Source: Chloroflexota bacterium
GTDB taxonomy: Bacteria; Chloroflexota; Dehalococcoidia; CAUJGQ01
Direction: 5' to 3'
NCBI GenBank assembly: GCA_036741355.1
Contig: DAINSK010000001.1
Span: forward strand, 19,047-83,046
DNA: 64,000 bases
Shown here: in pieces, positions 7,957-61,367 of the stretch
Numbering within the stretch: the stretch's first letter is position 1
Layout: each line of letters opens with the position of its first letter
Program-made: the position numbers and the translations under genes
The notes under the pieces: model-generated
What the model saw: the letters and a program-made list of their open reading frames with translations, nothing else
Told to the model about the DNA's origin: nothing
Database searches by the model: none

Positions 7957-8148
7957 GTCAGTGTGTAACTCGCGTTGGACCTGACTGGAACGGTGGCACG
8001 GCGCAGGCTCAGCCTAACACAGTTGCCCTCCAAAGAGGGCCGGTTCCAACCCATCCGTCGTTTGACTGTCCGGGTACGTGTGCTAGAGAATGTAATGGAT
8101 TCGGTCCCTAATCGTCGGCCATCGGTATGGCCTCACCGCAGGAGAAAT

Positions 8149-8691
8149 ATGGATACGAAGGAACTCAACGGCTCGGATCTGTTCTCGACCTGGGCCTTGT
8201 TACATCAATCCTATCTGCTCACTTACAAGTACCTCGATCAGATTGTCTCGCGACTGGGTATCTCACAGGCCCAGGCCTCGGTTCTTCTCGTATTGAAAGG
8301 AGCGGGTCAGCCGCTTCCCCTCTCCAGGTTGGCCCGCTATCTCGTGCAGGAAGCCCAAAGCGTTACGAGCCTTGTGGACCGGCTGGAAGCGCGCGCACTG
8401 GTCCGCCGGGTACCCGACAGCCGCGACCGCCGTGTGATTCACGTCGAGTTGACCCAGGCGGGTGATGAGCTATTCAACCAGATCTTCCCTGCCGCCTGGA
8501 AGGCCTGTCGCGAAGTGTTCGCAGAGCTAGACAGCAAAGAACTGGACGAGCTTGCGCAGCTAACGGCCAAAGTGCGCGACCGCAGCGCACAGCTTCTTGG
8601 GCTCGACCGCGCTCCATATGAAAAGGCCAGCGAGACGCTGCGCTTCAGTCCAGAAGTTTTCAGTCGGGCAGCCGTGGCCAGTGGTCGCTAG
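8149..8691 (+). CDS. MarR family transcriptional regulator.
   Basis: A winged-HTH MarR pattern (LGISQAQASVLLVLKGAGQPLPLSRLARYLVQEAQSVTSLVDRLEARALVRRVPDSRDRRVIHVELTQAG). Starts at the ATG at 8149 with a GGAGA RBS. Confidence 0.8.
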   Translation: MDTKELNGSDLFSTWALLHQSYLLTYKYLDQIVSRLGISQAQASVLLVLKGAGQPLPLSRLARYLVQEAQSVTSLVDRLEARALVRRVPDSRDRRVIHVELTQAGDELFNQIFPAAWKACREVFAELDSKELDELAQLTAKVRDRSAQLLGLDRAPYEKASETLRFSPEVFSRAAVASGR

Positions 8692-8871
8692 GTCCCGGCG
8701 ACCATGACTTCTATGTAGACATAGACCAGGCGCCAGTGCTTGTGCGCCTGCGCGGCACACGATACAAACAGTAACGGAGTTTGCAGGGCCCGCGGCCCCT
8801 GCTTGAGCGAGTATGCCGCGGGCTCCTTTTGTACACTTCTGCCCGCAGCCCATCGCCGTTCCGGAGGTCGC

Positions 8872-9645
8872 ATGGACTCCGTCCTGTATGAACAACATTA
8901 TCGCCTCGAGGACCACCACTGGTGGTTCGTTGGACGTCGGGAACTAGTGCTGCAGGTGATGGCCCGGCACGGCGCCGCTGGACTCGTGCCAATTCTCGAC
9001 CTCGGCTGCGGAACCGGGGGGATGCTGCGACATCTGGCTCAATTTGGAGATGCGGTCGGCCTCGACAGCGCCCCGGAAGCAGCGGCAGGGTGCCGGCAGC
9101 GCGAAGCTCCATTCATACAGGGTTGGGCCACGCGGCTTCCGTTCGCGGACTCTTCGATCGGCACGATCACTGCGCTGGACGTCATCGAGCACGTTCCCGA
9201 CGATACCGGCATCCTGAACGAGATTTTTCGAGTGCTCCGGCCCGGCGGTTTGCTACTGTTGACGGTTCCCGCGTATCAGTTTCTGTGGAGCCAGCACGAC
9301 GTGCTCAACCACCACCAGCGCCGTTACCGGCGGAGGGGGATACGGGACCTGGTTACTCGTTCAGGATTTGACATCGAAAAGCTGAGCTACTACAACACCT
9401 TCCTCTTCCCGGCAGCCGTCGCCCGCAAATCCATCATGCGCTTCAGCCGCAAAGAGGGGCCGGCGTCCCACCTCGACGACGTCTCGGCGCCGCTCAATGC
9501 GATACTCCGGCGCATCCTGTTGTCCGAGCGCTTCGTGGTGAAGCGTTGGAACTTCCCCTTCGGCGCTTCGCTCATCTGCGCCGCCCGCCGTCCGATGGAA
9601 GCTTCGGTTCCATGTGAAGAAGCCCTTGTAGCCGCACTGGGTTGA
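8872..9645 (+). CDS. Class I SAM-dependent methyltransferase.
   Basis: Motif I ILDLGCGTGGM, followed by an acidic motif II (GDAVGLD); starts at the ATG at 8872 with a GGAGG RBS. Confidence 0.8.
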   Translation: MDSVLYEQHYRLEDHHWWFVGRRELVLQVMARHGAAGLVPILDLGCGTGGMLRHLAQFGDAVGLDSAPEAAAGCRQREAPFIQGWATRLPFADSSIGTITALDVIEHVPDDTGILNEIFRVLRPGGLLLLTVPAYQFLWSQHDVLNHHQRRYRRRGIRDLVTRSGFDIEKLSYYNTFLFPAAVARKSIMRFSRKEGPASHLDDVSAPLNAILRRILLSERFVVKRWNFPFGASLICAARRPMEASVPCEEALVAALG

Positions 9646-12390: not shown

Positions 12391-13146
12391 TTAGCGAAAC
12401 GTGGACGCGACCGGCCGCCATCGCGTCGCGGCCATCAGGGGTGCCTGTGCTGCGCCAGACAGCGTTGAAGCAGCTACTGGGGGACGCGGCACTGGTCGCG
12501 CGATTGCCGCGGCAGCAGTACGGCTCCGCACCCTGAGCTTCGCGAGAACGGCCTTCACGTGGTTCTTGACTGTGTGCTCGGAGAGCACCAGCCGCTGGGC
12601 GATCTCGCGGTTCGAGACGCCTTCTGCGATGAGGTCAAGGACCTCGCGCTCCCGCGCGCTCAACTCGTGCAGGCGGGGATCCTCCGCCGCAGGCGCGGTC
12701 AGCGCCGCGTGACGGCGCAGTGCGATCACGACCTTCATCGTCAGCGTCCGCGATAAGGCGGCCTCGCCAGCACGGAGTCCCCGCAACGCACGCACGAGAC
12801 CCAACGGCGCAACATCCTTGGTCAGATAGCCGGAAGCGCCTGCGCTCAACGCCGCCAGCAGCTGGTCCTCATCAGCCTGTACGCCAAACATGATCACGTG
12901 CGGCTCATCGCTGCGGCTTCGTACCGCGCGCACGACGTCGAGGGGTTCACATGAGCAGTTATCGGCGTCTATCAGCACGACCTCGGGGTCAAAACGGTCA
13001 ACAACATAGCCGGCGTCAGAAAGCCTGTCCGTCTCGGCGACAACGTGCATATCGGGTTGGGTGTCGATTGCGGCTCTCAGGCCCGCGCGGAGCAGCGGGT
13101 GGCTTGTAAATAACACGATCCGTATTGGCACATTGACCGCGTTCAT
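12391..13146 (-). CDS. LuxR/NarL-family response regulator with an atypical receiver domain.
   Basis: A C-terminal LuxR HTH (LSAREREVLDLIAEGVSNREIAQRLVLSEHTVKNHV). The N-terminal receiver-like domain has TS in place of the conserved acidic DD pair (IRIVLFTSHP), while the phospho-acceptor Asp (VVLIDADN) and the Lys (GYLTK) are retained. Confidence 0.75.
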   Translation of the reverse strand: MNAVNVPIRIVLFTSHPLLRAGLRAAIDTQPDMHVVAETDRLSDAGYVVDRFDPEVVLIDADNCSCEPLDVVRAVRSRSDEPHVIMFGVQADEDQLLAALSAGASGYLTKDVAPLGLVRALRGLRAGEAALSRTLTMKVVIALRRHAALTAPAAEDPRLHELSAREREVLDLIAEGVSNREIAQRLVLSEHTVKNHVKAVLAKLRVRSRTAAAAIARPVPRPPVAASTLSGAAQAPLMAATRWRPVASTFR

Positions 13147-13717
13147 GGCAGAGCTCCACAAAGAAATCAACGCCGTATCCGCGTATTAGAGGATAGTATC
13201 ACAACTCCGGTATGACACCACATTTTATCCCGAAATTATGAATAATTCGTTGCGTCCAGCAAAGCGGTCGCCGGCTGTGCATAGCGGCTGGTATAGGACC
13301 GATAATGGTGCTCCGCGTCCAACATCAAACGTCTCCCGGATCAGCCAATCGCTCGGCACAGCTGGCAAACATTGACGAGAGCGTAAGAGTCAGGGAATTG
13401 ACGCCGGCCTTTTCCGCGGGTATACTTGTGATAGTTCCCACAAGCACAATGCAGCCGGACATGTCGTCCTGCGCGGAGGTTTTTTATTTGGAATCCATTC
13501 TGTATGCACAGCAAGTCGTCCAAGAGCTTGACGTGCGCTTCAAATCGCCGCAGTTTTCACAGCGCACCGCATACTTCGGCGAGGTGCGCAAGCGATTGCT
13601 ACGCCGGCGAACCGATGCCCGTCGCGCCGATGTTTCGGTCGGCAATCTGATGCAAACGACCTGGTAACACGCCGGCGTGCATCGCCGCACATCGAGCGGT
13701 AGCTCAATCCTCTCGCC

Positions 13718-22823: not shown

Positions 22824-23456
22824 GTGGTTACCGCGCAAGCAACCTGGCAACTGACTGGCGAGTACTTCGAGAACTGCAACTGCGACGTCGTTTGTCCGTG
22901 CCTCTTCTCTCCGGGCCAGCAAATGACGGCAAAGCCGACGCGGGGCGCCTGCGAAGTGGCATTCGGCTTCCACGTCGACCGGGGGCGGTTCGGGGATACG
23001 TCGCTCGACGGCATGAACGTCGGGATGATCGGACGTACGCCAGGCCCGATGGGAGAAGGAAACTGGTCCGTTGCGCTGTACCTCGACGAACGTGCCAACG
23101 CACAGCAACAGGAAGCGCTGCAGGCGATATTCACGGGCACTGCAGGCGGCGTTATGAGCAATCTCGCTCCCCTGATTGGAACGGTGCTGGGGGTAAAGAC
23201 CGTGCCGATAACCTGGAAAAAGGAGGGCAAGCGCCGGTCACTCGAGATTCCGAATATCATGCACCTGGCCGTGCGGGCGGCGCCGGGTCTGGGCGGAGAA
23301 GCCGAGATCCTGGTCTCCGGTGCGCATCCGTTTGCGCCCGAGGGTTTGGCAATGGCTGTCGGCGAGCAAGGCAGCACGTGGCAGGACTACGGCATGCGTT
23401 GGGATAACTCGGGGAAAAACGGTCATTACGCCGCCATCAAGTGGTCGAACTCTTAA
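22824..23456 (+). CDS. Hypothetical protein with a CNCD-x3-CPC cysteine motif (DUF1326-like).
   Basis: 210 aa with the motif FENCNCDVVCPCLF; GTG start. Confidence 0.4.
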   Translation: MVTAQATWQLTGEYFENCNCDVVCPCLFSPGQQMTAKPTRGACEVAFGFHVDRGRFGDTSLDGMNVGMIGRTPGPMGEGNWSVALYLDERANAQQQEALQAIFTGTAGGVMSNLAPLIGTVLGVKTVPITWKKEGKRRSLEIPNIMHLAVRAAPGLGGEAEILVSGAHPFAPEGLAMAVGEQGSTWQDYGMRWDNSGKNGHYAAIKWSNS

Positions 23457-23490
23457 CCAGGTCGGATGCTACGCCGCGAAGGAGTCAACA

Positions 23491-23781
23491 GTGTACGGGG
23501 CCGTCGCTCGCACGCGCCTCATGTCGGGTTCGGAACAAGCGTTTACTCAGTTATTGGCGGACTTCCGAAAGCTGAACGTTCCGGGGTTCATCGATTCGCA
23601 CGTTTACCGCATGGATGCAGACAGCAACGAGTACTACATGGCGGTGCTGTTCCGCGACAAGGCGTCCTACCTTGCGAATGCACAGAGCCCTGAACAGAGT
23701 GCCCGTTATCAGCAGATGCGGGCGCTAATGACCCAGGATCCGGAATGGCACGACGGTGAAGTTGTTTCCGGGGGCCGGTAG
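23491..23781 (+). CDS. ABM (antibiotic-biosynthesis-monooxygenase-like / Dabb) fold protein.
   Basis: About 96 aa with a ferredoxin-like pattern; GTG at 23491 preceded by an AAGGAG RBS. Confidence 0.5.
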   Translation: MYGAVARTRLMSGSEQAFTQLLADFRKLNVPGFIDSHVYRMDADSNEYYMAVLFRDKASYLANAQSPEQSARYQQMRALMTQDPEWHDGEVVSGGR

Positions 23782-23829: not shown

Positions 23830-25326
23830 TCACATACTCCCGGTGATATATGCCTGCGCCTTGTCCCAGGCGCGGACGCCGGCTATGTGCCCCATCGCCC
23901 TACCTTGCAGATCGCCATCAGGAAAGTGGATGCCGCCATAGCGGCGCGACAAACCCGCCTGGTCGGCCGCGTCCGAAAAGGTCTTCCAGGTCAGCGTCAC
24001 ATCCGTGGCGGGGACGGCGCCCGGCTCGAAACGCGAGCTCCCGGCGGCCTGAGTATATGAAGCGCCAAAGTCATCGCTGCCGGTGAAGCGTCGCAGGACT
24101 TCTGCCGCCGCCGCGCTAAAGGTGCTATGTCCAGAGACATACTCGGGAAAGGCCGGCGTGACGACGCTCGGCGACTGGAAGAGTTGCCACGTTCCGCCGT
24201 CGATCAACTGCGTCCCTTGAAATGGGCCTCCCCAGGCTCGCACTTGTTGACCCTGAAACAAGAATCGCACCGCGGTGATGGGGCGTACCGAGTCGTAGAG
24301 GCGTTTGGTATCCCAGGCAGCGATGCCCGCGTCCATCAATGCGTTCGTCATCGCGAAGAACATCTTGACGTCGGCGTCAAGGTCATTTCCGTCCCGAAGC
24401 GACACGAAGCGCGCAAACAGGCACCAATGGCCGGGCGGCAACTCCGACGAAGGACCGTCGGCAAAGTACTCGGTGATTACCTTTTGCTCGTCGGTGAGGT
24501 TGGCGCTGTACTCCAGCATCTGTTCGGCCTGGATGCTGTATGCCTCGGACGGATACGTGGCCGGTCCGAAGGCCGGTCGAAGTTCCGCGCCCGAAACAAG
24601 GGCGAATGGTGTGACGAGCCCCCAGTGCGGGCCGATGTACTGCTGCACCACAAAGCCCTTTTGCGGGTCGAAAACGCTCAGCGGCTGCCAGCGGTTTGGA
24701 TCTACGACCTCGTCCGGCGTGTTGACAGGTTGGTAGCCGGTGTAATCGGAATAAGGCCCAGGGTGCAGATCGCCTAACTGGTTAGAACCGTCGCCGTGAC
24801 GCCAATCGATCACCGCAGCGGCGCAGACGTTGCCGACTCCGGCAGGGGTCGTTGGATCGGTGTTGGTGTCGTCCGGGCTGTACCCCTGCGCGGCCATGAG
24901 ATCGGCGAACGCCGGCGTCGACGTTGGGAAGAGGTCAACCAGCGCCCGGTAGGCGGCAAAGCTGACCACAGCCTGCTTGTTGGCCGCCGTGTGCTCGGTC
25001 GTTGGTCTGCGAATGTCCGCTCCCAGGCGCGTACCAACGGCGACCGGGTCGAATGCCGCCCACGCGTCATACATGCAGGTGTGGAGGATCGCGAGAGCGC
25101 GGGCCACCATCGGAGGTCCCGGCTTCGTGTCACGGATCGCCTGAAGTGCGGCCGCGTCCCACATCAACACGGCGTTCTCGCCGGCAGAGAACGCCGTATC
25201 TCTACCGACGACCGACGTTCGCCGTAGGCGAGGCATGCGGCGGTCCGGCATTATCGGTAAGGCTGAAATTACTGCTATCGCCGAAGCTCCGCCGACGGCA
25301 CGACGAAATAGTTCGCGGCGATTCAT
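23830..25326 (-). CDS. Tat-secreted vanadium-dependent haloperoxidase / PAP2-superfamily protein.
   Basis: A twin-arginine signal MNRRELFRRAVGGASAIAVISALP, and the PAP2/vanadate-binding signature blocks KRLYDSVRP and PEYVSGHSTFSAAAAEVL ... RRYGGIHFPDG. Confidence 0.7.
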   Translation of the reverse strand: MNRRELFRRAVGGASAIAVISALPIMPDRRMPRLRRTSVVGRDTAFSAGENAVLMWDAAALQAIRDTKPGPPMVARALAILHTCMYDAWAAFDPVAVGTRLGADIRRPTTEHTAANKQAVVSFAAYRALVDLFPTSTPAFADLMAAQGYSPDDTNTDPTTPAGVGNVCAAAVIDWRHGDGSNQLGDLHPGPYSDYTGYQPVNTPDEVVDPNRWQPLSVFDPQKGFVVQQYIGPHWGLVTPFALVSGAELRPAFGPATYPSEAYSIQAEQMLEYSANLTDEQKVITEYFADGPSSELPPGHWCLFARFVSLRDGNDLDADVKMFFAMTNALMDAGIAAWDTKRLYDSVRPITAVRFLFQGQQVRAWGGPFQGTQLIDGGTWQLFQSPSVVTPAFPEYVSGHSTFSAAAAEVLRRFTGSDDFGASYTQAAGSSRFEPGAVPATDVTLTWKTFSDAADQAGLSRRYGGIHFPDGDLQGRAMGHIAGVRAWDKAQAYITGSM

Positions 25327-25437
25327 TCGCCTGTAACCGACCGCTGTCTTTGTGTGGCGAGCACTATGTCGCGGCATCATCAAAAGCGGCGAGTCCTGTA
25401 CTATCTGTCAAGGTTTGGCGATATTGCCGACCTGGAC

Positions 25438-25486
25438 ATTGTAGACGTCTGCCTTCGGTCTACAATCAATCACGGACTTGATTGTA
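25438..25486. promoter_or_regulatory. Compound palindromic operator-like element in a divergent promoter region.
   Basis: IR1 ATTGTAGAC-N11-GTCTACAAT (25438-25446 / 25458-25466) overlaps IR2 TACAATCAA-N8-TTGATTGTA (25461-25469 / 25478-25486). Both have perfect 9-bp arms. Confidence 0.5.
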
Positions 25487-25509
25487 CCCGGGCGTGAGGT
25501 CCAGTTTTC

Positions 25510-26334
25510 GTGACCGTCGCCGTTTCGCTGATCGCCACGCTGATTACGTTCGTGTTCGCGGGCTTGGTGCTGCGCCAGTACCTGCAGCGACCACGATCGT
25601 ACCGGCTGGTTTGGACTGCTGCTCTGGTCTGCTACGGCGCGGCTACGGGCGTCCAGTTCATCGCCGAGATCTTTGGCTGGAGCACCGCGAGCTTTCGCCT
25701 TTGGTACCTGTTCGGCGGCCTGCTGACCGCGGCCTACCTCGGCCAAGGGACGGCATTCCTGTTGCTGCCCCGCCGAGTGGCTTCGGTGCTGCTGTTTATC
25801 TTGTGCGCGGCGAGCCTTTGGGGGGCATATCGCACCTTCACCGTGCCGCTGGGATATGCCGAGATCCGGCCGCCGGCGGGCAAAATCTCGCCGAACGCCA
25901 CTCTGTTGACCGCCGATCTGCGGGCGCTGGCTGCGCTGATGAACGTATACGGCACGCTGCTGCTGGTCGGCGGCGCGGTATGGAGCGTCTGCGTTTACAT
26001 GGACCGCATGCTCGACCGCCGGCGCCGTGCCGCGTATCGGCTGGTCTCGAACATTCTCATCGCCGCAGGTTCGCTAATTGTCGCCAGCGCCGGCTCACTG
26101 GAGACGTTCGGCCACGGCGAATATCTATACGCCGGCGAGATCTTCGGTATATCGATCATCTTCCTGGGCTTCTTGCGCAGCCGGGAGTCTATGAAATTCC
26201 CCATTCGCTGGACAAAGAGCCCGGCGAACGAAGCCGGCGACACGCGGACTTCTCCGATCGCGACGGATCCGGATCTCAAGTCGTTTCAGTCACTTAAGCG
26301 GCTGAGCGACCGTACCGGCGCGACCCGGCGCTAA
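25510..26334 (+). CDS. Integral membrane protein (hypothetical).
   Basis: Seven to eight predicted hydrophobic helices and no catalytic motif recognised. Confidence 0.5.
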   Translation: MTVAVSLIATLITFVFAGLVLRQYLQRPRSYRLVWTAALVCYGAATGVQFIAEIFGWSTASFRLWYLFGGLLTAAYLGQGTAFLLLPRRVASVLLFILCAASLWGAYRTFTVPLGYAEIRPPAGKISPNATLLTADLRALAALMNVYGTLLLVGGAVWSVCVYMDRMLDRRRRAAYRLVSNILIAAGSLIVASAGSLETFGHGEYLYAGEIFGISIIFLGFLRSRESMKFPIRWTKSPANEAGDTRTSPIATDPDLKSFQSLKRLSDRTGATRR

Positions 26335-30961: not shown

Positions 30962-31003
30962 TCCCATGCTACAATCAGGCGCAATAGCGTCCTGAGGAGC
31001 GAT

Positions 31004-31336
31004 ATGGGCACAACGCGCGATATCGTGATTATCATCTGGGGAATTACAAGCATCCTTTCCCTCATCGTCGTAATGCTCATCGCGCTCTTAATCGGTCTTT
31101 CAGTCAAGAACCTCGTCGGCACCGTCAACGACCTGGTTATCACGAGTGTGAAGCCGGTAATCGATACGTCGCAGCGAAGCATCGCCAACGTAACGGGGAC
31201 AGCGCAGTTTCTCGGCGATACTGTGGTAACGCCTGTGATCAAAGTCTTCAGCTTTGTGGCCGGCATTCGCCGTGGGATCGCGGTTTTCACCGGGCTGCGC
31301 AGCAAGCTGCCCGGCGGAGGCCGGGAACGCTCATGA
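31004..31336 (+). CDS. Small membrane-anchored protein (DUF948-like).
   Basis: An N-terminal TM helix followed by an amphipathic/coiled region; the DUF948 resemblance is tentative. Confidence 0.4.
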   Translation: MGTTRDIVIIIWGITSILSLIVVMLIALLIGLSVKNLVGTVNDLVITSVKPVIDTSQRSIANVTGTAQFLGDTVVTPVIKVFSFVAGIRRGIAVFTGLRSKLPGGGRERS

Positions 31337-60654: not shown

Positions 60655-61011
60655 TCAGGCGATCCGCTGGTCTGGCCGCTCAGCCGTCTCGATTGCGCCG
60701 ATGTCAGGCCCGAGCCGGATGGTCTGGTCGGGAAAGACGGCGCTGATCTCGAGCCAGCCGCCAAGCGCCTCGACGTAGCTGCGTAGCGTCGAGACGTAGA
60801 CGTCCCGCTCGTGCTCCGCCCGCGATACGTTAGTCTGACTCGTGTCCCATGCCCTCGCAAGCTCGACCTGGGTCACGCCGCGCGCCTCCCGCAGCTTGTG
60901 GAGCGCGAGCAGGTCGCGCGCGATTTGCCGCTCCTGTGCGACCGCGGCGCGTCCTTCTGGGGTGGATTCGAGCCGGTCCCGTAGATGCTTGAACGGCTTG
61001 TGTCCGCTCAT
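60655..61011 (-). CDS. XRE-family HTH antitoxin (HigA-like).
   Basis: An HTH (ARGVTQVELARAWDTSQTNVSRAEH); overlaps the upstream toxin gene by ATGA. Confidence 0.65.
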   Translation of the reverse strand: MSGHKPFKHLRDRLESTPEGRAAVAQERQIARDLLALHKLREARGVTQVELARAWDTSQTNVSRAEHERDVYVSTLRSYVEALGGWLEISAVFPDQTIRLGPDIGAIETAERPDQRIA

Positions 61012-61367
61012 AGAATGGCTCCTTCGTGCCTGAGCTCATCGAGATGGTCATCATAGAGCTGGTCGGCGACGGGTACCGCCTGCTCGTACCAGGCAGTCCA
61101 TTGGTCGCGCTTGTCACCGCCGAGTAGGAGGATCGCCGTCCGGCGAGGGTCGAAGGCAAAGAGGATGCGGAGAAAGCCGCCGCGGGGGCGGAGTTCCTTC
61201 ATGTTTGAGTGCCGGGACGTGGTAACCGTGTCCACCCATGGCCGGCCGAGAGCGGGCCCGCCCTGCTCCAGGGTTTCGATTGCCCGCGAGATCATGACTT
61301 GCTCCTCCTGAGCCAATCTGTCCCACCAAGCTCCAAACTCGTTGGTGTACTCGACCTCCCAACTCAC
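61008..61367 (-). CDS. Type II toxin-antitoxin system RelE/ParE-superfamily toxin (HigB-like gene order).
   Basis: 119 aa (MSWEVEYTNEFGAWWDRL ... RHSNMKELRPRGGFLRILFAFDPRRTAILLLGGDK ... WYEQAVPVADQLYDDHL). Confidence 0.6.
   Translation of the reverse strand: MSWEVEYTNEFGAWWDRLAQEEQVMISRAIETLEQGGPALGRPWVDTVTTSRHSNMKELRPRGGFLRILFAFDPRRTAILLLGGDKRDQWTAWYEQAVPVADQLYDDHLDELRHEGAIL

Follow-up and report, generated by a model that had tools for sequence, protein, structure and literature searches.

What does a compound palindrome do between two genes that are transcribed away from each other? The question was raised by a 49-bp element at positions 25438-25486 of a 64,000-nucleotide stretch of DNA from a Chloroflexota bacterium of the class Dehalococcoidia (the whole 64-kb stretch is hereafter called the window). 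The element, to which an earlier reading of the same DNA (hereafter the original prediction) had drawn attention, consists of two overlapping perfect dyads in the spacer between a gene for a vanadium-haloperoxidase-like protein (the VCPO-like gene) on the left and a membrane-protein gene on the right. We consider it probable, from the sequence and its conservation, that the element is the core promoter of the membrane-protein gene, and the reading that we rate most likely, at roughly even chances, is that one or two operators, for a regulator whose gene lies elsewhere, are superimposed on this promoter.

Structure of the compound palindrome

The repeat finder returned exactly the two perfect 9-bp dyads that had originally been described, with the hexamer TACAAT in common. 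The 49 bp read ATTGTAGAC GTCTGCCTTCG GTCTACAATCAA TCACGGAC TTGATTGTA. Dyad 1 (25438-25466) is ATTGTAGAC-N11-GTCTACAAT, with arms at 25438-25446 and 25458-25466, and dyad 2 (25461-25486) is TACAATCAA-N8-TTGATTGTA, with arms at 25461-25469 and 25478-25486; in both the arms are 9 nt long and 100% complementary, and TACAAT at 25461-25466 belongs to both. The features to which the argument refers are the following:

25327-25509, spacer between the divergent genes, 183 bp, 53% GC; holds the compound palindrome
25438-25446, arm A, ATTGTAGAC, left arm of dyad 1; holds the -35-like TTGTAG (25439-25444) of the putative rightward promoter
25447-25457, spacer of dyad 1, GTCTGCCTTCG, 11 nt; would double as promoter spacer
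25458-25469, arm B, GTCTACAATCAA, right arm of dyad 1 and, in overlap with it, left arm of dyad 2; candidate -10 TACAAT at 25461-25466
25470-25477, plus strand, spacer of dyad 2, TCACGGAC, 8 nt; dyad centre at 25473.5
25478-25486, arm C, TTGATTGTA, right arm of dyad 2; at ~+5 to +13 relative to the predicted rightward start
25432-25509, conserved block with both dyads and the 5' leader; Shine-Dalgarno-like GAGG at 25496-25499
23830-25326, minus strand, VCPO-like gene, 498 amino acids (aa); DUF6851 and VCPO_2nd domains (Pfam scan)
25510-26334, plus strand, membrane-protein gene, 274 aa; GTG start codon at 25510

Read on the minus strand, arm A gives a -10-like TACAAT (25443→25438) that faces the VCPO-like gene, and arm C gives a third TACAAT hexamer (25486→25481), upstream of which no -35-like hexamer was found when the sequence was inspected. 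Outside the hexamers, the symmetry extends over GAC/GTC in dyad 1 and CAA/TTG in dyad 2, and arm B contains a tandem CAAT-CAAT within TACAATCAATCA. The gene layout (23830-25326 on the minus strand, 25510-26334 on the plus strand) bears out the claim that both divergent genes start at the element. A scan of 25250-25600 returned no terminator-like site, in line with the earlier judgement that a bidirectional terminator is unlikely where both genes start.

A further 6-bp inverted repeat, CTGGAC (25432-25437) and GTCCAG (25499-25504), surrounds the whole compound palindrome and overlaps the end of GAGG; its halves are paired in the minimum-energy fold of the plus-strand leader, a fold that is not significant (z = -1.3).

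Expected frequency of perfect inverted repeats

The window was searched for perfect 9-bp inverted repeats with a gap of ≤ 20, and 15 distinct ones were found, as against 8.8 ± 2.9 in dinucleotide shuffles. Two such repeats less than 60 bp apart occurred in 22 of 300 shuffled windows, and a 9-bp pair sharing an arm in 12 of 600 (2%). When the 183-bp spacer alone was shuffled 20,000 times, one such repeat was obtained in 176 cases and two in none. The compound palindrome is thus improbable at this location, yet it is a ~2% event for a scan of 64 kb, and the original description of the symmetry as "far beyond chance" was overstated. Its position and its conservation must carry the argument.

Conservation in close relatives

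The locus was recovered in seven more copies (L081, L164, L167, L168, L169, L170, and L178), and their alignment with the window gave a set of eight close relatives with the same gene pairing throughout and with membrane and VCPO-like proteins 94-99% identical to those of the window. As a measure of the divergence covered, the membrane-protein genes of the window and L164 differ at 23 of 275 third codon positions (8.4%). In the spacer, 16 sites vary among the eight sequences, of which 15 fall into 25327-25431 (105 bp) and a single one into 25432-25509 (78 bp). According to our own binomial calculation from these counts (p ~0.002), the 78 bp between a point just left of arm A and the start codon are evidently under constraint. 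The sole variable site within them is G25458A, found in five of the eight sequences, while arms A and C and the spacer of dyad 1 are invariant. At ~5% divergence the arms and the spacers of the dyads are equally invariant, with the only change located in an arm, and sequences this similar do not allow a protein site to be told from a promoter or a leader.

The variable part of the spacer holds an invariant island of its own (25394-25411), with a perfect TTGACA on the minus strand (25406-25411) and TACTAT on the plus strand (25399-25404). Both lack convincing partner hexamers; they could belong to additional promoters.

Orthologous loci and the -10 hexamer

Genome and metagenome scans provided 160 orthologous loci, and the upstream regions of the 40 best-matching ones were inspected. 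As the MAFFT alignment of distant upstream regions was uninformative, it was replaced by an alignment anchored on TACAAT. In three loci (L161, L162, and L173) the membrane-protein orthologues are 65-69% identical, the left neighbours differ (an alpha/beta hydrolase gene in L161 and L162), and the upstream DNA is mostly unalignable. TACAAT is kept in all three, 59 nt from the start codon in L173, 69 nt in L161 and 60 nt in L162, compared with 43 nt in the window; the sequence around it in L173 is mostly unlike that in L161 and L162. From base composition, the chance of encountering TACAAT in 200 nt of such GC-rich DNA was estimated at ~1%. Since the hexamer has been kept while its surroundings diverged, TACAAT at 25461-25466 very likely serves the membrane-protein gene as its -10 box. 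The alignment of L173 with the window extends further: TTGTTG-cccga-TCTGCC-gcgccg-TACAAT (N17) in the former and TTGTAG-acg-TCTGCC-ttcggtc-TACAAT (N16) in the latter have in common a -35-like TTGT hexamer, TCTGCC in the spacer at about the same distance from TACAAT, and the -10 hexamer. Orthologues more remote than these three have boxes of the form gg-TAnAAT-g, 30-70 nt upstream.

A second gene of the window points in the same direction. Upstream of the plus-strand gene 31004-31336, the sequence tgc-TACAATCA-gg (30967-30978) is found 34 nt before the ATG, with TG at the extended -10 position; TACAATCA is the same -10-like octamer as in the central arm, and its presence there supports the view that TACAAT is usable as a -10 in this organism. 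The original remark that the shared TACAAT resembles a -10 element is therefore well supported.

Among the 40 upstream regions, the dyads themselves were seen only in L081, a near-identical copy, and no dyad is present in the GC-rich DNA upstream of the more distant VCPO-like genes in L165 and L166. As L161, L162, and L173 have neither dyad, the perfect symmetry is best read as a recent, species-level feature that arose from an older quasi-palindrome (TTGT...ACAA).

The 65-68% identical orthologues of L161 (925-965) and L162 (640-672) share a different inverted repeat, CCGACCGT-N14-ACGGTCGG, which lies between TACAAT and the start codon. Its arms agree between the two loci and its loops do not, and it might act in those lineages as a hairpin of the leader or as an operator.

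A promoter model for the membrane-protein gene

In the model that we propose, the rightward promoter would consist of the -35-like hexamer TTGTAG (25439-25444), a 16-bp spacer, and the -10 hexamer TACAAT (25461-25466), with a transcription start (+1) predicted near 25473, 7 nt after the -10, followed by GAGG (25496-25499) and the GTG start codon at 25510. The -35-like and -10 hexamers are mutually reverse-complementary, which would give dyad 1 (centre 25452, spanning -35 to -10). As one hexamer lies in the left arm and the other in the right arm, part of the symmetry of dyad 1 would be explained by a single promoter.

Because dyad 1 is a perfect palindrome, its minus strand reads the same TTGTAG-N16-TACAAT, which would amount to a mirror-image promoter directed toward the VCPO-like gene, with the -10 at 25443→25438, a predicted start near 25431, and a leader of ~105 nt on the VCPO-like mRNA. 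The VCPO-like gene may be served by this mirror-image reading: the predicted leader coincides with the freely varying stretch of the spacer, and the conserved block begins about at the predicted minus-strand start. What the sequences show directly is the dyads, their conservation in close relatives, and the retention of the -10 in orthologues, together with the -35 in one of them; the start sites, the use of the minus strand, and the binding of any protein are inferred.

Operator reading and search for a regulon

The promoter hexamers leave part of the symmetry over. Dyad 2 would pair the -10 with a copy at ~+5 to +13 and would be centred (25473.5) on the predicted +1. Dimeric repressors that block RNA polymerase usually sit at such a position over +1, and one or more such repressors bound to the compound palindrome would block the -35/-10 region as well as +1. 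With the -10 placed at 25461-25466, arm B would lie outside the rightward transcript; dyad 2 would then form no hairpin there and would have to act on the DNA. The extra symmetry (GAC/GTC and CAA/TTG), together with an invariant arm C that lies in the leader, may find its simplest explanation in one or two dimeric repressors, an attribution to which we give somewhat less than even chances. That a specific DNA-binding regulator makes use of the symmetry at all is, likewise, a possibility that we hold to be real and slightly short of even. Finally, we only infer that both divergent genes are under shared control by the element.

A number of findings weigh against a promoter overlaid with operators. 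On the side of the promoter, a consensus promoter scan reported no site here, its silence being due to the fact that TTGTAG matches TTGACA at only three of six positions, and in the alignment anchored on TACAAT the loci L161 and L162 show no -35-like hexamer. On the side of the operators, neither dyad occurs in the 65-69% identical orthologues examined or in the most similar of the more distant ones, and G25458A, which is not compensated by another change, takes away the innermost pair of dyad 1 and leaves this dyad 8 bp long in five of the eight close relatives. Arm A agrees with arm B only in GTC plus the core, and arm C only in the core plus CAA, an identity pattern that suggests pairing or template-switch copying rather than a single recognition motif common to the arms. 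Measured from centre to centre, the half-sites of the two dyads are 20 bp and 17 bp apart, distances that are unequal and long; the half-site centres of helix-turn-helix (HTH) dimers are usually separated by ~10-11 bp. To these comes the frequency of arm-sharing pairs in shuffled windows given above.

The genes and further sites that a regulator would require were also searched for, with results that belong to the same side of the balance. Pfam scans of ~50 of the window genes detected as regulators a MarR-family protein, a LuxR-type response regulator, and an XRE-type antitoxin, none of them near the element: no gene for a DNA-binding domain or regulator lies within ~10 kb, and the nearest ones are the LuxR-type response regulator gene (12391-13170, ~12 kb) and the MarR-family gene (7975-8691, ~17 kb), which confirms the original observation that no regulator gene is adjacent. 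The regulon that might have been defined by other copies of the dyads or of TGTAGAC, as had been proposed, did not materialize in the sequence available. Within 64 kb, the 9-mers of the arms (one mismatch), the 12-mer TTGATTGTAGAC (three mismatches), and TGTAGAC occur at chance level (for TGTAGAC, 5 found vs. 2.7 ± 1.5 expected), and the gapped dyad patterns, searched for in 173 other loci that had been fetched, matched only the same locus in close relatives. Scans of viral contigs gave one and three exact matches in unrelated DNA, which is about the number expected by chance from the pattern length; the one inspected was AT-rich.

A separate perfect 7-bp palindrome, TCTATGT-AG-ACATAGA (8709-8724), is located in the 48-bp gap between the MarR-family gene (7975-8691, plus strand) and a methyltransferase-like gene (8740-9645, plus strand). 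It is likely a MarR operator and was the one noteworthy extra match of the regulon search, although it has only TGTAGAC in common with arm A.

Alternative explanations

The symmetry could also have arisen without a protein to read it. An ancestral quasi-palindrome (TTGT...ACAA) would then have been perfected, and the third copy added, by template-switch mutation (quasi-palindrome correction) or by slippage, with conservation owed to the promoter and the 5' leader. This explanation is rather unlikely in our estimation and still the most serious of the competitors: the imperfect version TTGTTG...TACAAT exists in L173, the tandem CAAT-CAAT of arm B hints at local slippage, the dyads are confined to one species-level lineage, and dyad 1 has decayed in most of the close relatives; the same can be said of the missing regulon copies in 64 kb, of the lack of a nearby regulator, and of the 2% of shuffled windows with an arm-sharing pair. 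What it leaves unaccounted for are the matches that extend three bases beyond the hexamer core on each side, which no promoter consensus explains, the absence of two perfect 9-bp dyads from all 20,000 spacer shuffles, and the invariance of arm C within a leader that has no need of a promoter element. Base pairing in RNA would account for the identity pattern between arms A and B and between B and C, as this is what it would select. One or two hairpins (A:B and B:C, or A:B and a shifted CAAUCA/UGAUUG) would in that case affect mRNA stability or translation from within a long leader, either of a VCPO-like mRNA started from the minus-strand TACAAT at 25486→25481 or of a membrane-protein mRNA started from an upstream promoter, e.g., TACTAT at 25399-25404. 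The dyads fold with -9.6 and -7.3 kcal/mol on the plus strand and -8.3 and -8.2 kcal/mol on the minus strand (z -3.6 to -4.4), the 49-mer is able to form two adjacent hairpins on either strand, the 177-nt minus-strand leader is moderately stable (z = -2.4), and a different leader hairpin (CCGACCGT-N14-ACGGTCGG) is present in L161 and L162. The 88-nt plus-strand leader, however, is not unusually stable (z = -1.3; 18 of 200 shuffles fold as well), and the absence of a T-run after either hairpin means that there is no terminator or attenuator. G25458A produces a G-U pair in the minus-strand RNA but breaks a pair in the plus-strand RNA, and no compensatory change was seen, the region being invariant and so offering no covariation to test. 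Rfam returned no match in 25250-25650 even at E-values up to 5, and at the gathering score it recognized only two tRNAs in the whole window. Moreover, arms A and B would lie outside the rightward mRNA if TACAAT at 25461 is the -10, and the minus-strand TACAAT at 25486 has no -35-like hexamer. Taken together, an RNA element seems improbable to us.

Two further explanations would assign the element to a known kind of site, and we regard both as very improbable. The first is a relic of recombination or of a mobile element at a synteny breakpoint, e.g., the core site of a tyrosine recombinase or the terminal repeats of a small element. The left neighbour of the membrane-protein gene does vary (VCPO-like here, alpha/beta hydrolase in L161 and L162, others in L001, L163, L172, and L173), and dyad 2 has the 9-8-9 layout of recombinase core sites. 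Nevertheless, among ~50 of the window genes, compared with Pfam, we saw no integrase, transposase, or direct-repeat footprint, the arm sequences are not repeated elsewhere in the window, the matches in viral contigs lie in unrelated DNA at about chance level, and the promoter spacer and the -10 have homologous counterparts in L173, which makes the centre of the element ancestral rather than inserted. The other would be the site of an established regulator family, with dyad 1 as a BirA (biotin repressor) operator or dyad 2 as an OhrR/MarR box. For BirA, the published operator consensus is TTGTAAACC-N14/15-GGTTTACAA (PMC545781). Written in this register, dyad 1 is TTGTAGACG-N9-GGTCTACAA, and it matches at 7 of 9 and 8 of 9 arm positions (15 of 18), with 9-bp arms and a long, non-conserved spacer in both cases; but N9 is 5-6 bp shorter than N14/15, a difference by which the half-sites would no longer lie on one face of the helix, and the neighbours are VCPO-like and 7-transmembrane (7-TM) genes, with no biotin genes adjacent. 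The OhrR box is TACAATTNAATTGTA, and in the ohrA operator of Bacillus subtilis several of these hexamers are strung together (PMC6034001, PMC2651793). Dyad 2 has the same outer hexamers (TACAAT and ATTGTA), a peroxidase-like neighbour would suit a peroxide sensor, and a MarR-family gene is present at 7975-8691. Against this, the hexamers of TACAATT-N-AATTGTA are spaced by 3 bp and those of dyad 2 by 14 bp, the AATT centre is missing, no ohr gene lies nearby, and the MarR gene is 17 kb away and reaches 28.7 bits where the OhrR cut-off is 200.

Comparison with known systems

The closest parallels of a promoter with superimposed operators are the repressor operators on sigma-70-type core promoters (TetR/QacR, MarR/OhrR, and LacI types), which likewise place perfect dyads over -35/-10 and +1 between divergent genes, with AT-rich arms in a GC-rich genome. 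The element differs from them in having no adjacent cognate regulator gene, which is usual for TetR and MarR, and no known protein or regulon; in addition, two different dyads share one arm here, and the half-site spacings of 20 and 17 bp are unusually long. CIRCE, the site of HrcA, is a perfect 9-N9-9 inverted repeat (arm TTAGCACTC) that serves both as a DNA operator and as an mRNA element. The 9-bp perfect arms, the spacer of 8-11 bp, and the position between promoter and start codon are comparable, whereas the sequences are unrelated, no chaperone genes adjoin the element, and two overlapping dyads take the place of one.

In the bidirectional promoters described by Warman, Grainger and colleagues, the -10 elements of the two strands fall on the same place, with 10, 18 or 23 bp between the divergent starts (PMC12825309; bioRxiv 10.1101/2020.01.31.928960). 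There the symmetry of the promoter lets RNA polymerase bind either way and serve two divergent genes in mutually exclusive binding modes, as it would in the model proposed here. The present element, by contrast, has its -10-like hexamers separated by 17 bp, each of them lying on the -35 of the other, and its predicted starts separated by ~42 bp; it resembles this class in principle and is not a member of it. Carried to its end, the comparison leads to a bolder version, in which dyad 1 is a mirror-symmetric two-way promoter, each arm acting as -35 in one direction and as -10 in the other, that drives one gene or the other and never both at once, with arm C competing for arm B, via a protein or strand extrusion, and thereby biasing the direction. 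We think this quite unlikely; if true, it would represent a compact direction switch, unlike the known bidirectional promoters with coinciding -10 elements.

Significance

The element is of an ordinary kind, a new example of a familiar type, and nothing about it challenges current understanding. If the model of a promoter with possible operators is true, it provides a concrete set of positions (-35, -10, +1, and a possible operator) for an uncultured lineage of Dehalococcoidia. To our knowledge, very few promoters have been defined in that lineage. It would also suggest that one symmetric site controls both a widespread 7-TM family of the Chloroflexota and a secreted enzyme of the vanadium-haloperoxidase-like kind. 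In practical terms the gain is modest: the 49-mer would serve well as bait in a DNA pull-down, and the symmetric -35/-10 arrangement is a tidy case for the study of promoter directionality.

The flanking genes

The product of 23830-25326 is, by prediction, a secreted protein of the vanadium-haloperoxidase-like/PAP2 type; its N-terminus, MNRRELFRRAVGG, is a signal of the twin-arginine type. For the 274-aa membrane protein, searches of Pfam and NCBIfam returned no match. Its AlphaFold2 model has seven long helices (mean pLDDT 78), and since the fold search against the PDB found only generic 7-TM bundles at non-significant scores (best E 0.007, TM ~0.5), it gave no hint of a function. The family is widespread in the Chloroflexota, with 479 confirmed matches among GTDB (Genome Taxonomy Database) species representatives, and its invariant residues include W35, R63, W65, Y66, R138, N145, R172, R177, and E210. 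Homologues of both proteins come from metagenome-assembled genomes of Dehalococcoidia/Chloroflexota; the pairing of the two genes was found only in close relatives and not at the other orthologous loci checked.

Other features were observed around these genes. An ABM (antibiotic biosynthesis monooxygenase-like) gene (23320-23781) and a DUF1326 gene (22824-23456) are located downstream of the VCPO-like gene and convergent with it, and the block Metallophos, 7-TM, VCPO-like, ABM, and DUF1326 is also kept in L164. In many Anaerolineae-type loci (L004, L006, L008, L009, L010, L091, L106, and L107), a small open reading frame lies within 200 nt upstream of the 7-TM homologue; its product ends in ...YP.(L/V)YEK..P(I/M)AL followed by one hydrophobic helix. 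This arrangement, which is absent from the lineage of the window, suggests a conserved two-gene unit.

At a distance from the element, a HigB-like toxin gene (Gp49/DUF891, 61008-61367, minus strand) is followed by an XRE-type HTH gene (60655-61011, minus strand), the two forming a probable toxin-antitoxin pair. Directly upstream of the toxin gene stands a TATAAT, as would be expected for a leaderless or short-leader transcript.

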